A stretch of 64,000 nt of DNA, taken from assembly GCF_046105845.1 (NCBI RefSeq), contig NZ_CP151004.1; one strand, 5' to 3'. The DNA comes from Escherichia coli (GTDB lineage: Bacteria; Pseudomonadota; Gammaproteobacteria; Enterobacterales; Enterobacteriaceae). Shown here piece after piece: positions 34,003-42,110 of the stretch. Position 1 is the first letter of the stretch. Each line of letters begins with the position of its first letter. Both the position numbers and the translations under genes were made by a program. Under the pieces are notes generated by a model, which searched no databases, was not told the DNA's origin, and was given only the letters and a program-made list of their open reading frames with translations.

Positions 34003-34917
34003 ATGAACAAAGTTAGCATATTAATGCCTGTTTATAATGTAGAAAAATATATTAGAGCTGCGATTGGTAGTATATTAAACCAAACATATCCGAATATAGA
34101 GTTAGTAATTGTAGACGATGCGTCTACTGACAATACATTACTCATTATAGATGAAATTGCGCAAAAAAATAATAACATAATTATTGTTCGCAATGATGTA
34201 AACTCTGGAATAACCGTAGCGCTAAACAAAGGTCTTAAATATTGTAGCGGTGATTATATAGCTCGAGCTGATGGTGATGACATACAAGATCCTTTACGAA
34301 TTCAAAAGCAAATAGACTTTCTAAAGGAGAATCAAGAATATGGATTGGTTGGATGTTGGATAAAAAACATAGATGAGTCAGGAAAACAAATAGCTTCATG
34401 TAAATATCCGGTTTCAGACTTAGAAGTGAGACAATGCGTTAGCTATACATCTCCCGTACTTCATATATGGTTAGCAAAGAAAGAAGTTTACGAAAAACTG
34501 AATGGATACAGGAATACAAATCCAGCTGAAGATTATGATTTTATTTTAAGATGTTTGGATTATGGTATAAGAATAGGGAACGTTCCGTATTATGGTTCAA
34601 TGATACGTTTACGTTCAGGGAGTACATTAACTGAATCTTCTTTAAAACAACGGGTTATATCAAACTATCTGTGTAAAAAATTTAAAAAAGGCATTATTAA
34701 TACAATTGATATCGAATCTGAACTACCTAAAACAAATGAACTTAAAATTATTACTAAATTGCATTCTTGGTCATGTTTCTTTTTAAAAAAAGCAATAGAG
34801 AACAAAAGGTCGTTAAAAGGGGCAGCTTATTTATGTTTGTCGCTTATAAGTCCTTTTACAGTTCAAAATATAATAAAGAGGCAGATTTTTAAAAGAAAAT
34901 GTAACAAGGGTTATTAA
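34003..34917 (+). CDS. O-antigen GT2-family glycosyltransferase
   Basis: 304 aa; N-terminal GT-A signature SILMPVYNVEKYI...LVIVDDASTDNT and DGDD motif; AT-rich codon usage. Confidence 0.8.
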   Translation: MNKVSILMPVYNVEKYIRAAIGSILNQTYPNIELVIVDDASTDNTLLIIDEIAQKNNNIIIVRNDVNSGITVALNKGLKYCSGDYIARADGDDIQDPLRIQKQIDFLKENQEYGLVGCWIKNIDESGKQIASCKYPVSDLEVRQCVSYTSPVLHIWLAKKEVYEKLNGYRNTNPAEDYDFILRCLDYGIRIGNVPYYGSMIRLRSGSTLTESSLKQRVISNYLCKKFKKGIINTIDIESELPKTNELKIITKLHSWSCFFLKKAIENKRSLKGAAYLCLSLISPFTVQNIIKRQIFKRKCNKGY

Positions 34918-34918
34918 A

Positions 34919-35962
34919 TTGATAAAAATAGCAATAATATTACCATCATTGAAAAACGTTGGACCGAATAGAGTTGCACATACTCTTATTAACAAACTAA
35001 GTGATAAAGAAGGTGTATACCTAAAGGTTTTTTATATAAAAAAAGAATTAGGATTAAATTTTACTTGTGATACAGAACTTTTGACTTTAGTTAATGTACG
35101 AAAATTATATGCCTTCGATGTCTTGCATTCACATATGCTTAGGCCAGATGTCTTGGTTGGGCTACTTCCATTTTACAAAGGCCTTAAAATAAGCACAATC
35201 CATAATATAGTGACAGAAGATATACAATATACACATGGTAGTGTGATATCTAAAATTGTCTCTGAATTATGGTTTAGGATTTGGAATAGATTTGATAAGA
35301 TAGTCGTGCTATCAAAAGTAGCAAAAAAATACTATCTGGGACATGGGCTAAAATCTAAAAAATTAGAGATCATATATAATGGAATTGATCTGGATATAGG
35401 AAGTAATATCAATTATGAAGATAAGAAAATAATAGAGGAGTTTAAAGGAGACAGTACTCTTCTGGGAACACTTTGTTTAGCAAATCACAGGAAAGGTATA
35501 GAACAGATTCTTTATGCCTTGCCATTCTTACCTAATTATAAATTTATAATTATTGGTGATGGACCTGTAAGAGAATATTTAGAAAATTTAGCTATAAGTC
35601 TGAATGTAAGAGATCGATTTTTTATTCTGGGCTATAGAGAAAACGCTAAAGATTTACTAAAATATATCGATATTTATCTAATGCCAAGTAGATCGGAAGG
35701 ATTTGGTCTCGCATTGCTTGAGGCTGTTGCAGCAAAAATAACAGTAGTTTGCTCAAATATTCCAATATTTAAAGAAATCTTTACTGAACGACAAGTGTCT
35801 TTTTTTGAATTGGATAATACAAACTCACTTATTCAAGCGATACAGAACTCAATAAGTAATGATATAAATGACGCGTATATAAGGCTAAAACAAAATTATA
35901 GCTCAGATACGATGGCTCGATTATATCATGAATTATATATGACTTGTAAGGAAGTAAAATGA
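34919..35962 (+). CDS. O-antigen GT4-family glycosyltransferase
   Basis: 347 aa; C-terminal E-X7-E motif (SRSEGFGLALLEAVAAK); apparent TTG start, so the exact start is uncertain. Confidence 0.75.
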   Translation: MIKIAIILPSLKNVGPNRVAHTLINKLSDKEGVYLKVFYIKKELGLNFTCDTELLTLVNVRKLYAFDVLHSHMLRPDVLVGLLPFYKGLKISTIHNIVTEDIQYTHGSVISKIVSELWFRIWNRFDKIVVLSKVAKKYYLGHGLKSKKLEIIYNGIDLDIGSNINYEDKKIIEEFKGDSTLLGTLCLANHRKGIEQILYALPFLPNYKFIIIGDGPVREYLENLAISLNVRDRFFILGYRENAKDLLKYIDIYLMPSRSEGFGLALLEAVAAKITVVCSNIPIFKEIFTERQVSFFELDNTNSLIQAIQNSISNDINDAYIRLKQNYSSDTMARLYHELYMTCKEVK

Positions 35963-39966: not shown

Positions 39967-41084
39967 AAGAAGAAAGTCATGATAATGATAAAGGAGTCTC
40001 TTTTATCGGTTTTTTATGGCTACTGGCATGTGGGTTATATATAACAAGGATAACTGCTATTAGTCCTGTTTATCTGGTTTTTATTCTCGCATTAATGTTA
40101 GCTATTCTTACAAATATTAATTGCGGGAAATATAAGGTTTCTGTTTTTACACTACTAAGTTTAATAATACTATTACTTTCAATATTTCTTTTTTTTAATT
40201 CACAAATACCTCTCGTAATTAATCTGTTGATAGTGTTACTATCACCAATGCTAGTGGATTCTTATTATAAGAGGCGATATATTACAAAACAAAATTTATT
40301 GAATGTGTTTTTATTTTATTCCTTGGTTTTCATTCTTGATGGTTTTTGGCGAATTAAACATCCCTATCTTGAACATGTAGATAAACTAGAAGAACTGGGC
40401 ATCGGCTTTCAAATATATAAAGTGAATTCATTCATGTATTCAGATTCTAATTTTGTTGGCCTGGAAGCTGTTTTTATACTATCTTGTTTTCTTTACATGT
40501 TTAAAGGTGTTCGACGGACTGGATTACTTCGGATAAAATATTTTTTCGTTTTTTGTGCTTTATTTTTGGGGGTTCTGTTAACTTTTTCTAGGGCTGCTAT
40601 CATAGCAATGATTTTACTTTTTATATTTTTCATTTTGATGAGGAGTAAATTTATTAAAACTGTTTCGTATATGTTAGCGCCAGTATTACTTGTGGTTTTT
40701 TCATGGTTTATATATAAGAGATTTACGGATGATATAAGTTTTGAGAGTAAATTTAATTTAATTAGGTATACTCTTGAATACATTAAAGATAGTGATATTG
40801 ATATGATATTGCTAGGTGTTGGTCTGGGAAATGCAGTCGAAGTAATTGGTATGGGGGCACATAATCTATTTTTGACTTTCTTAATCGAAACTGGTGTTAT
40901 TGGTTTAGTATTGTTTTTAGTTTTATTATGCATTATGTGGTTCTATCTCAAAGAAGATGCAATCATCATCATGCTTCCATTTCTAATAGCATCAATGTCG
41001 CTCGGGACAACCGCAGTACCTTACTTTTTTACCTTTACTTGGTTATGTATTCTTTACAAAAGAAAATTGTTTAATGTCGTCTGA
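39963..41084 (+). CDS. wzy: O-antigen polymerase Wzy (putative)
   Basis: 373 aa, very hydrophobic with about 10-11 TM segments and a large loop; no recognisable catalytic domain; typical position and AT-richness of Wzy. Confidence 0.65.
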   Translation: MKEESHDNDKGVSFIGFLWLLACGLYITRITAISPVYLVFILALMLAILTNINCGKYKVSVFTLLSLIILLLSIFLFFNSQIPLVINLLIVLLSPMLVDSYYKRRYITKQNLLNVFLFYSLVFILDGFWRIKHPYLEHVDKLEELGIGFQIYKVNSFMYSDSNFVGLEAVFILSCFLYMFKGVRRTGLLRIKYFFVFCALFLGVLLTFSRAAIIAMILLFIFFILMRSKFIKTVSYMLAPVLLVVFSWFIYKRFTDDISFESKFNLIRYTLEYIKDSDIDMILLGVGLGNAVEVIGMGAHNLFLTFLIETGVIGLVLFLVLLCIMWFYLKEDAIIIMLPFLIASMSLGTTAVPYFFTFTWLCILYKRKLFNVV

Positions 41085-41102
41085 CATTGGATAGGAAACA
41101 GT

Positions 41103-42110
41103 ATGAATATTTTAGTTACCGGTGGCTTAGGATATATAGGCTCTCATACTTTAATTCGATTGATTGAGCTTAAGCATAACATCATAGTGGTTGATAACCT
41201 TTCAAACTCTAAAGCAAGTGTGATCGAGCGAATAAAATCACTGAGTGGTGGAGACTTTATATTTTATAACTGTGATATTTGTAATGCTAAGTGTCTGCAA
41301 GAGATATTCTCTAAACATAATATCAATAAAGTCATTCATTTTGCCGGATTGAAATCAGTTTCAGAGTCAGGTAAGGCACCTCTAACATATTATCACAATA
41401 ATGTAGTTGGAACGTTAAATTTATTGAAGGTAATGTATTCAAATGGAATAAAGGATATTATATTTAGTTCTTCTGCAACTGTATACGGGGTGCCAGATAT
41501 TATACCTTTGACTGAAAAATGCGTAACTGGAGGAACTACAAATCCTTATGGAACCAGTAAACACATGGTCGAGCAAATCTTAATGGATTTAATTAAGTCT
41601 GATGGCGATTGGAATATAACAATTCTTCGATATTTTAATCCTATTGGAGCCCATCCTTCAGGAGAGATTGGGGAGGACCCGCAAGGAGTACCTAATAATT
41701 TAGTACCTTACGTAACTAAAGTCGCAATTGGAGATTTACCTTTTTTAACCATTTATGGCGATGATTACAGTACTCCTGATGGAACAGGAATCAGAGATTA
41801 TATTCATGTTTGTGACTTAGCTGAAGGGCATATAGCTGCATTGAACAATAAAGAAATAAGTGGTTTGCATATCTATAATTTAGGCACAGGTGTTGGCTCA
41901 TCTGTATTAGATATAATAAATACATTTGAGCAAGTTAATCATGTTTCGATTCCTTATCGTATATCTAAAAGGCGAGAGGGAGATGTCGCGCAATGCTGGG
42001 CTGACCCAACATTGATTCAAACTAAGTTAAATTGGCGTGCAAAATATAATCTTGAGGACATGCTTAAGCATGCTTGGCTTTGGCAACTCAAAAACAAGGG
42101 ATATGTTTAA
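41103..42110 (+). CDS. gne: UDP-hexose 4-epimerase, GalE family (likely UDP-GlcNAc/Glc 4-epimerase Gne)
   Basis: 335 aa, MNILVTGGLGYIGSHT, catalytic YxxxK (NPYGTSK); last gene of the AT-rich cassette. Confidence 0.85.
   Translation: MNILVTGGLGYIGSHTLIRLIELKHNIIVVDNLSNSKASVIERIKSLSGGDFIFYNCDICNAKCLQEIFSKHNINKVIHFAGLKSVSESGKAPLTYYHNNVVGTLNLLKVMYSNGIKDIIFSSSATVYGVPDIIPLTEKCVTGGTTNPYGTSKHMVEQILMDLIKSDGDWNITILRYFNPIGAHPSGEIGEDPQGVPNNLVPYVTKVAIGDLPFLTIYGDDYSTPDGTGIRDYIHVCDLAEGHIAALNNKEISGLHIYNLGTGVGSSVLDIINTFEQVNHVSIPYRISKRREGDVAQCWADPTLIQTKLNWRAKYNLEDMLKHAWLWQLKNKGYV

Follow-up and report, generated by a model that had tools for sequence, protein, structure and literature searches.

An O48-related but distinct O-antigen gene cluster in Escherichia coli carrying an ATP-grasp ligase gene

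Organization of the locus

The window is a 64,000-nucleotide stretch of Escherichia coli DNA (contig NZ_CP151004.1) that contains an O-antigen gene cluster. The cluster occupies the galF–gnd interval, with the colanic acid genes on its upstream side and ugd, wzz and his on its downstream side, as determined from the open reading frame (ORF) map and from colinearity with two annotated loci, L001 and L002. The order of genes is galF, JUMPstart/ops, rmlBDAC, a cassette of eight genes, gnd, ugd, gla and wzz (Table 1). The ops element is the RfaH-dependent antitermination site of E. coli O-antigen operons. The homologues of rmlBDAC in L001 are annotated as rfbB/D/A/C and share 95–97% nucleotide identity, and the gla-type epimerase gene is 98.7% identical to that of an 'NAD-dependent epimerase' in the same locus.

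A sequence-only reading of this DNA had described the cassette as eight tightly packed genes. All eight are real, are encoded on one strand and belong to the families named at that time (GT2, GT4, GT2-like, Wzx, ATP-grasp, GT4, Wzy and GalE-family epimerase). GT2a shares 99% nucleotide identity with L001, and 92% nucleotide and 94% amino acid identity with O48, and GT4a is 93% identical to O48 at the nucleotide level. The homologue of GT2b is named 'glycosyltransferase family 2 protein' in RefSeq; GT2b itself gave only weak GT2 matches, and the earlier 'WbbL-like' label for it is tentative. The wzx and wzy candidates have the transmembrane topology that had been asked of them, with 11 and 12 hydrophobic segments, respectively. 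No wzm or wzt ORF was found in the cluster, where all eight cassette ORFs have been assigned and an ABC transporter is not among them. The wzx and wzy candidates, four glycosyltransferases, rmlBDAC, ops and the galF–gnd position are all present, as proposed for a Wzx/Wzy-dependent locus.

TTG and GTG start codons had also been reported. The TTG of the first GT4 gene is also the start that RefSeq annotates in the 99% homologue, but the GTG at 37896 for the ATP-grasp gene was not upheld. This gene starts with ATG at 37908 in RefSeq and in all 341-aa homologues, and the GTG start is probably an over-extension. The overlaps between cassette genes are 4, 35, 29, 26 and 4 nt. Because the corrected start changes the overlap with wzx to 29 nt rather than 41, the lower limit of the earlier range of 4–41 bp stands and the upper limit does not.

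Table 1. Features of the O-antigen locus in the window
Feature	Position	Strand	Basis or remark
ops element GGCGGTAG of JUMPstart, galF–rmlB spacer	30433–30440	+	Exact motif, 80 bp upstream of rmlB
rmlB	30520–31605	+	dTDP-L-rhamnose synthesis; ORF map
rmlD	31605–32504	+	dTDP-L-rhamnose synthesis; ORF map
rmlA	32562–33437	+	dTDP-L-rhamnose synthesis; ORF map
rmlC	33445–33996	+	dTDP-L-rhamnose synthesis; ORF map
GT2a, GT2-family glycosyltransferase	34003–34917	+	NCBIfam EpsE/TuaG-type GT2, best E 1.8e-42, under equivalog cut-off
GT4a, GT4-family glycosyltransferase, TTG start	34919–35962	+	GT4 matches (BshA, PglJ and others)
GT2b, small GT2-like glycosyltransferase	35959–36741	+	Weak Pfam matches: Glyco_trans_2_3 7.5e-4, Glycos_transf_2 1.8e-3
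Wzx O-unit flippase	36707–37936	+	Pfam Polysacc_synt_3 1.2e-7; GRAVY 0.89; 11 hydrophobic 17-mers
ATP-grasp carboxylate-amine ligase, uncharacterised family	37908–38933	+	Absent from O48; putative GalA amidoligase
GT4b, GT4-family glycosyltransferase	38908–39966	+	GT4 matches; 81% nt / 78% aa to O48
Wzy O-antigen polymerase	39963–41084	+	Pfam Wzy_C 4.9e-12; GRAVY 1.02; 12 hydrophobic 17-mers
GalE-family UDP-hexose 4-epimerase, probably Gne (UDP-GlcNAc to UDP-GalNAc)	41103–42110	+	TIGR01179
gnd, conserved right flank	42218–43624	+	Putative recombination junction within first ~300 bp
ugd, UDP-glucose 6-dehydrogenase	43846–45039	+	RefSeq homologue start equivalent to 43873
gla-type NAD-dependent epimerase (putative UDP-GlcA to UDP-GalA)	45105–46109	-	SDR epimerase matches
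wzzB chain-length regulator	46478–47512	+	RefSeq homologue start near 46535

Base composition and exchange of the cassette

The GC content of the cassette (34003–42110) is 0.308 compared with 0.487 in the left 10 kb and 0.490 in the right 10 kb, which agrees with the earlier estimate of an AT-rich stretch of about one third GC that is poorer in GC than its flanks. Seven cassette genes range from 0.296 to 0.307, and galE has 0.353. GC3 in the cassette genes is 0.21–0.27 versus 0.535 in gnd and 0.573 in galF, in line with the A/T-rich codon usage noted before. Maximum-likelihood change-points were located at 33804, towards the 3' end of rmlC, and at 42192, in the galE–gnd spacer. They are offset by about 200 bp on the left and about 80 bp on the right from the edges that had been drawn at the rmlC and gne stops. 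Both stops are thus close to a change-point, but only part of the claim of sharp edges was retained: galE is intermediate, at 35% GC, and the right edge is therefore a short ramp, not a cliff. Similarly, the abrupt drop is genuine but does not begin from about 50% GC in rmlBDAC. These genes have only 0.39–0.48, so the left step runs from about 44% to 31%.

A block of 98–99.6% identity at about 33.5–42.5 kb is common to the window and E. coli JNEC-KY203, and its flanks are 94–97% identical. In the comparison with L001, identity is 98.8% at 42001–42500, followed by 96.0% and 94.4% downstream, in gnd. A block of this kind inside less similar flanks shows that the whole cassette was transferred in one piece. 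The alignments indicate homologous recombination as the route by which it passed from one E. coli background to another, with junctions in rmlC and the 5' end of gnd. An identical series of eight genes, ATP-grasp gene included, follows rmlBDAC in Enterobacter cloacae (L003, GC 0.322) and Aeromonas sp. A-5 (L007, GC 0.342), and both modules are AT-rich relative to their own flanks. The E. cloacae module differs in having only 51–64% amino acid identity, and the Aeromonas module is directly followed by ugd, a wecA-like gene, wzz and an O-antigen ligase gene in place of gnd. The near-identical block and the presence of the module in other genera support the horizontal acquisition that had been proposed.

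Relation to serogroup O48

Two RefSeq E. coli genomes match the cassette at 99% identity, and four O48 genomes match it at about 85.6%. The O48 cluster of strain VE-T2 (NZ_AP027960) occupies the same galF–gnd site and has the order rmlBDAC, GT2, GT4, GT2, wzx, GT4, wzy and galE/gne, with ugd–gla–wzz downstream. All common genes are homologous, at 76–94% amino acid identity. The first two glycosyltransferase genes are 92–94% identical to O48 at the nucleotide level, versus 78–82% for wzx, GT4b and wzy, and this uneven divergence suggests a mosaic history. Identity is 79.7% (nucleotide) and 78% (amino acid) for wzx against the gene that PGAP names 'O48 family O-antigen flippase', and 80.0% and 76% for wzy against the 'O48 family O-antigen polymerase'. 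At least 97% identity in wzx/wzy is the threshold for the same cluster (PMC5643014), and less than 70% is that for a wholly novel OgN. Values of about 80% are under the first and over the second and are therefore intermediate, as in a variant. The serogroup had been considered not assignable from sequence, but the wzx/wzy comparison narrows the relation to O48-related, not O48. Identity with O48 (Og48) was rejected on the basis of these values and of one extra gene, the ATP-grasp gene.

In the compared gene maps, the cluster differs from O48 in gene content by the ATP-grasp gene alone. O48 has a 209-nt spacer in its place. The spacer keeps a colinear remnant of the 5' end of the gene (local score 19 versus 10.3 ± 1.5 for shuffled sequences, maximum 15), and the decayed ORF in it reads MLKIAIVIFEYACFV*. 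Since the eight-gene module with the ATP-grasp gene is found in E. cloacae and Aeromonas, O48 is the deletion derivative.

NCBI already contains exact copies of the Wzx, Wzy and ATP-grasp proteins, with cluster members from E. coli and E. fergusonii. UniProt A0A6S6KK80 is 100% identical to the ATP-grasp protein, and A0A6S6KQJ5, an 'O-antigen polymerase', belongs to the same 90% protein cluster as Wzy. The UniProt entries in these 90% clusters seem to stem from the deposition of an annotated O-antigen cluster. [quoted passage not shown] The name OgN48va occurs in a passage of PMC10104362 that cites Iguchi et al. (2020, J Clin Microbiol 58:e01493-20), where it denotes an O48 gene-cluster variant found in STEC. 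The present cluster is probably this catalogued genotype, to judge from the name and the UniProt entries.

The epimerase and the ATP-grasp protein

The epimerase scores 427.9 bits with TIGR01179 (cut-off 262). Its gate residue, at the position of Tyr299 in E. coli GalE, is Cys, where 'GDVAQCWAD' is aligned with 'GDLPAYWAD' of GalE. A small residue replacing Tyr299 in a GalE-family SDR is the trait of Gne, or group-2 UDP-hexose 4-epimerases. The top PDB match is 1LRK, which has Cys at the same position. 1LRK is reportedly the GalE Y299C mutant of Thoden et al. (2002), which gains UDP-GalNAc activity. Judged from this residue, the epimerase probably has Gne (UDP-GalNAc) activity.

The ATP-grasp fold was found in the product of the extra gene, with a confident assignment as a carboxylate-amine ligase, and the closest solved folds are RimK, LysX and ArgX. 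K100, K139, D273, E285 and Q287 are invariant in 47 homologues. These candidate nucleotide- and Mg-binding residues fall in the segment whose counterpart in Ddl and L-amino-acid ligase is the ATP-binding motif. A precedent for an ATP-grasp enzyme of a surface-polysaccharide locus is the C-terminal domain of Cj1438, which amidates a uronic acid in the Campylobacter jejuni HS:2 capsule (PMC11800379); formation of a uronic acid C-6 amide is also the mechanism proposed here. The Cj1438 domain differs in being TupA-like (PF14305) and fused to a GT2, and it acts on GlcA in an ABC-transporter-type capsule, whereas the protein of the window is stand-alone and would act on GalA in a Wzy-dependent O-unit. 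Membership of the TupA-like family was rejected, as the protein has no PF14305 match at E ≤ 10; 5 of its 47 distant relatives match PF14305 (E ≤ 0.001).

A UDP-sugar 6-dehydrogenase gene is present in the locus in seven of the eight ATP-grasp contexts examined. Four contexts (the window, E. cloacae, V. vulnificus and S. algae) have ugd together with a 334-aa epimerase, and in Aeromonas ugd adjoins a 338-aa epimerase. No dehydrogenase was found within 10 kb of the distant homologue in Aquimarina (L011). Because ugd genes are common in polysaccharide loci, their co-occurrence is weak evidence.

Proposed O-antigen pathway

Transcription would start upstream of rmlB and, to judge from the motif, read through JUMPstart/ops. 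RmlBDAC would provide dTDP-L-Rha, the GalE-family enzyme with the Cys gate UDP-GalNAc, and Ugd with the downstream gla-type epimerase UDP-GalA. GalA is reportedly part of the O48 O-antigen (MacLean is said to have described the structure in 2006), as the gene content also indicates. WecA, encoded elsewhere, would begin the unit with GlcNAc on undecaprenyl phosphate, and the four glycosyltransferases would finish a unit of about five sugars. The unit would be flipped by Wzx and polymerised by Wzy, with chain length set by Wzz. The ATP-grasp enzyme may convert the C-6 carboxylate of GalA into an acyl phosphate and join an amine (an amino acid or amino alcohol) to it, which would give an amidated, O48-like polysaccharide. 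The O48 antigen has one GlcNAc, which is its initial sugar, and one GalNAc, and its cluster has gne (PMC7685785). The repeat predicted earlier, with Rha, GalNAc and GalA among about five sugars, fits this related antigen and the Cys gate of the epimerase. It is highly probable that the region, taken as a whole, forms the serotype-specific core of a Wzx/Wzy-dependent O-antigen cluster of E. coli, a diverged sister of O48 rather than O48 itself and probably OgN48va, with amidation as its putative additional step.

Alternative explanations

The cluster could simply be serogroup O48, with the ATP-grasp gene as a silent passenger and a product that is chemically and serologically O48. The gene order is the same save one gene, the seven common genes are all homologous, and the name OgN48va implies that its authors saw an O48 variant. 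This is nevertheless improbable, as wzx and wzy are far under the same-cluster threshold, and PGAP withholds the O48 names from both. The ATP-grasp gene is also intact, with 99.7% amino acid identity between backgrounds, a position kept across genera and invariant residues of catalytic type. The low GC content could likewise be an intrinsic trait of O-unit processing genes, selected or mutationally maintained in any host, and no mark of foreign origin. The homologous cassette of Enterobacter has 32% GC and that of Aeromonas 34%, beside rml genes of 48–53%. The composition thus travels with the cassette and is un-ameliorated in all three hosts, and low GC could be typical of O-unit genes in general and need not mirror the GC of a donor. 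Even so, this explanation leaves horizontal transfer uncontradicted and is itself unlikely: the GC3 contrast with the neighbouring genes is a classical signature, and recent exchange is shown directly by the 99% block within its flanks and by the cluster proteins in E. fergusonii.

Another explanation concerns the ATP-grasp enzyme, which might attach an amino acid to another carboxylate or an amino sugar, assemble a short peptide substituent, or have its target outside the O-antigen. Among its nearest structural relatives, ArgX/LysX and RimK use protein or peptide carboxylates as substrates, and Ddl and L-amino-acid ligase use amino acids; it has no sequence-level match to the characterised sugar amidoligase family. 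The homologues in Colwellia and Acinetobacter are located in loci with nonulosonic-acid or amino-sugar pathways. These roles are somewhat unlikely, however, as the gene is inside the O-unit operon with translational overlaps at both ends, and no aminotransferase for a free amino sugar is among the genes of the cluster. GalA is the sole obvious carboxylate of the predicted unit, and ugd and a gla-type epimerase are adjacent in most ATP-grasp contexts. By gene context and analogy, the enzyme may thus amidate GalA.

Possible implications for uronic acid amidation

It is tentatively proposed, at a little under an even chance, that the stand-alone ATP-grasp protein is the first of a new family of amidoligases for uronic acids in O-antigens and capsules, that this family is widespread and separate from the TupA-like Cj1438 type, and that deletion of the gene in O48 switches the backbone from an amidated to a non-amidated form. 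The taxa given for the proposed family are E. coli, Enterobacter, Aeromonas, Vibrio, Shewanella, Proteus, Cronobacter and Colwellia. If this is true, the family would supply the missing gene for the amino-acid-amidated uronic acids of many bacterial polysaccharides. The presence of the gene in this cluster and its loss in O48 would then be a genetic switch between the amidated and non-amidated forms of one backbone.

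Position of the cluster beside O48

The cassette occupies the canonical E. coli O-antigen locus. Ahead of it come wcaM, galF and rmlBDAC, with 372 nt of spacer between galF and rmlB; downstream lie gnd, ugd, a minus-strand gla-type epimerase, wzz and the his operon. The galF-rmlB spacer carries the ops motif GGCGGTAG at 30433. The gla-type epimerase lies in the ugd-wzz interval (45105-46478). In the RefSeq homologue L001, a short annotated pseudogene fragment lies ahead of wzz (L001:19277-19369), and in the O48 strain VE-T2 (L002) an IS200C transposase is inserted between ugd and the gla-type epimerase (L002:17425-17883).

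Among 5,426 complete E. coli genomes searched by megablast, only six contain the cassette. JNEC-KY203 and 2017.17.01CC, human isolates with Japanese AP-prefix records, carry it at 99% and full length, and their wzx and wzy are without a serogroup name in the PGAP annotation. The other four match at ~85.6% over 89% of the cassette length, and there wzx and wzy carry 'O48 family' names. No family match for Wzx or Wzy was found in NCBIfam; therefore, these RefSeq names do not come from any of the HMMs applied here. Published thresholds treat O-antigen clusters at 97% or above as the same and those below 70% as a wholly novel genotype (PMC5643014). Because its wzx and wzy share about 80% of nucleotides with O48, the window cluster is best placed as a sister of O48, too divergent to be the same and too close to be wholly novel. 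This position matters for typing, since in-silico serotyping may miscall strains with the window locus or leave them untyped.

The STEC genotype 'OgN48va', credited to Iguchi et al. 2020, has been listed (PMC10104362), and it is probably the name of the window cluster. A paper on E. albertii O-genotypes makes no mention of O48 or ATP-grasp. The exact sequences of Wzx, Wzy and the ATP-grasp protein are already in NCBI, filed as E. coli, and UniProt A0A6S6KK80 matches the ATP-grasp protein at 100% identity. Their 90% protein clusters include full-length E. fergusonii members and a UniProt 'O-antigen polymerase' entry. The O-antigen cluster thus appears to cross the species line within Escherichia, E. 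fergusonii included. The cassette belongs to a thoroughly familiar type of locus and is an ordinary example of it; public genomes already contain it, and it has probably been named. The his/plaP flank (52-60 kb) is matched at 95-99% in 5,424 of the 5,426 genomes, with a best value of 98.6%. Shigella or a different Escherichia species was weighed as the source and rejected on this match and on the filing of the exact proteins as E. coli; the strain belongs to an E. coli lineage with no close representative among complete genomes.

Gene content and edges of the cassette

The eight open reading frames were scanned against NCBIfam and Pfam, and the results are collected in the table together with neighbouring features.

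Features of the O-antigen locus, with family evidence and identity to O48
Feature	Window position	Evidence or note	Identity to O48
GT2a (glycosyltransferase)	34003-34917	clear GT2 matches at family level	92-94% nt (range for GT2a and GT4a)
GT4a (glycosyltransferase)	34919-35962	clear GT4 matches at family level	92-94% nt (range for GT2a and GT4a)
GT2b (glycosyltransferase)	35959-36741	weak GT2 matches only	89% nt
Wzx	36707-37936	Polysacc_synt_3, E 1.2e-7	79.7% nt / 78% aa
ATP-grasp	37908-38933	fold from structure prediction	
GT4b (glycosyltransferase)	38908-39966	clear GT4 matches at family level	81% nt
Wzy	39963-41084	Wzy_C, E 4.9e-12	80.0% nt / 76% aa
GalE/Gne epimerase	41103-42110	427.9 bits vs curated GalE cut-off 262	87% nt
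gla-type epimerase	45105-46109 (-)	in the ugd-wzz interval	
Antisense ORF in gnd	42431-43606 (-)	391 aa	
Antisense ORF in wzy	40493-40933 (-)	146 aa	
Antisense ORF in rmlB	31246-31668 (-)	140 aa	

The antisense frames in gnd, wzy and rmlB are probably spurious, though the one opposite gnd is strikingly long. A Kyte-Doolittle scan found 11 hydrophobic 17-residue segments in Wzx (GRAVY 0.89) and 12 in Wzy (GRAVY 1.02), compared with none in soluble neighbour proteins. The membrane topology on which both assignments had been staked is thus present.

The epimerase aligns end to end with E. coli GalE and has a cysteine ('GDVAQCWAD') at the site of GalE Tyr299 ('GDLPAYWAD'). Its best-scoring PDB chain, 1LRK, also has cysteine at the equivalent position; 1LRK is reportedly the Y299C mutant. 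Thoden et al. in 2002 reportedly found that Y299C lets the site accept UDP-GlcNAc/GalNAc, as human GALE does. The gene is most likely gne because cysteine replaces Tyr299 at the gate position, and both the gate residue and the 1LRK match support the earlier assignment.

The abrupt fall in GC content, previously judged by eye, was confirmed by sliding profile and direct counts, which gave 30.8% in the cassette against 48.7% and 49.0% in the 10-kb flanks. Seven of the eight genes lie at 29.6-30.7% and the epimerase, the last gene, at 35.3%. GC3 is 0.21-0.27 in the cassette genes, while gnd reaches 0.535 and galF 0.573. By a two-segment likelihood analysis, the low-GC block begins at a change-point at 33804, within the final 200 bp of rmlC, and ends at a second one at 42192, between galE and gnd. 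Sharp edges had been proposed at the rmlC and gne stops. There are change-points near both, but on the right the GC content rises in a short ramp across the epimerase gene. Some details of the sequence-only reading did not hold. The rmlBDAC genes measure 39-48% GC rather than roughly 50%, and of the TTG and GTG starts only the TTG of GT4a agrees with independent annotation. The GTG start proposed for the ATP-grasp gene at 37896, with a 41-nt overlap, probably gives way to the downstream ATG at 37908 used by RefSeq and all 341-aa homologues, and the overlap with wzx is then 29 nt.

Exchange of the cassette and possible internal recombination

Sliding identity to JNEC-KY203 is 98.2-99.6% across ~33.5-42.5 kb, compared with 93.8-97.6% on the left side (30.5-33.5 kb). 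On the right side, it is 94-96% in the first kilobase and mostly 94-99% beyond. From this step, the shared unit spans from inside rmlC to ~300 bp into gnd, and it coincides with the low-GC block. Such a highly similar block within less similar flanks bears out horizontal acquisition and points to replacement of the cassette by recombination in conserved flanks, the classical O-antigen pattern. Homologous cassettes in Enterobacter and Aeromonas have 32% and 34% GC, respectively, against 48-53% for their rml genes. Divergence from O48 is ~7% in GT2a and GT4a and then ~21% from wzx onward. Nucleotide identity in wzx, GT4b and wzy ranges over 78-82%. Instead of uniform divergence, this unevenness suggests that an extra recombination point lies near 36.5 kb, within the cassette.

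These results support the overall reading of the stretch as a serotype-specific O-antigen cassette. Beyond it, the analysis adds the O48-sister placement, the polarity of the ATP-grasp change, the Gne gate residue, the recombination boundaries and a testable function for the ATP-grasp protein.

Apparent loss of the ATP-grasp gene from O48

In O48, GT4b follows wzx with no gene in between, only a 209-nt spacer (L002:10929-11137) homologous to window 37937-38907. The first ~50 nt of this spacer, right after the wzx stop, are colinear with window 37939-37988 at a local score of 19, whereas 300 shuffles gave 10.3 +/- 1.5 with a maximum of 15 (observed z 5.9). From the homologous ATG, the spacer reads MLKIAIVIFEYACFV*, a decayed ORF of 15 codons, where the window reads MQKILIVTAENGWFAQ... 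Over its last 40 nt, which overlap the GT4b start, the spacer matches the window at 95%. The 3' part, these 40 nt aside, has weak similarity to the ATP-grasp gene (z 1.5), and no similarity was detected between the spacer middle and this gene (z -0.7). The alignments indicate that the O48 spacer is the ATP-grasp gene reduced to a pseudogene remnant.

The closest homologue of the ATP-grasp protein outside Escherichia is found in Enterobacter cloacae, at 62% aa identity. In the E. cloacae locus, too, rmlBDAC precedes the eight genes, whose order is unchanged, and gnd, ugd, gla and wzz come after them. Aeromonas sp. A-5 has the same eight-gene module, ATP-grasp included, with ugd, a wecA-like initiating transferase, wzz and an O-antigen ligase/PglL-like gene immediately behind it (L007:13239-18539), which makes it more self-contained than the E. 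coli locus. Because both keep the eight-gene module, the ATP-grasp-bearing form is the widespread and presumably the ancestral one, and O48 is a deletion derivative.

Proposed role of the ATP-grasp protein

The Pfam match of the ATP-grasp protein to Dala_Dala_lig_C is weak and partial (2.4e-5), and so the fold assignment comes from structure prediction. Sixteen positions, among them K100, K139, D273 and E285, are invariant across homologues down to 28% identity. Homologues are present in Vibrio, Shewanella, Moritella, Colwellia, Acinetobacter, Proteus, Cronobacter and others, with no annotation beyond 'hypothetical' or 'ATP-grasp domain-containing'. In Aquimarina (L011:7221-12955), a distant homologue lies beside a second 341-aa protein without a Pfam match; asparagine-synthase-like and FemAB-family genes adjoin it, and a UDP-sugar dehydrogenase was not found nearby.

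All eight genomic contexts of the gene that were examined are polysaccharide loci, usually with wzx next to it, and seven include a UDP-sugar 6-dehydrogenase within the locus. The pair of ugd and a 334-aa epimerase is present in four (the window, E. cloacae, V. vulnificus and S. algae), and in Aeromonas ugd adjoins a 338-aa epimerase. No aminotransferase gene is encoded in the window cluster, and therefore no carboxylate other than that of GalA is obvious in the predicted unit. For this reason, we tentatively propose that the enzyme could amidate C-6 of GalA, using either an amino acid or an amino alcohol; we rate this as somewhat less likely than not. Some family members may instead work in amino-acid or peptide decoration, not in uronic-acid amidation. 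A mechanistic precedent for GalA amidation is Cj1438 of the Campylobacter capsule, whose ATP-grasp domain amidates GlcA (PMC11800379), but the window protein lies outside the TupA-like family of Cj1438. In the literature search, no specific link emerged between ATP-grasp genes and amides of uronic acids in O-antigen clusters, Proteus included.

The ATP-grasp family is the only avenue to novelty at the window locus. The window cluster and O48 form a natural pair: they have their backbone genes in common, and one ATP-grasp gene is present in the former and absent from the latter. This pair offers a clean route, of modest value, to the function of an uncharacterised ligase family in the surface-polysaccharide loci of many Gram-negative bacteria.
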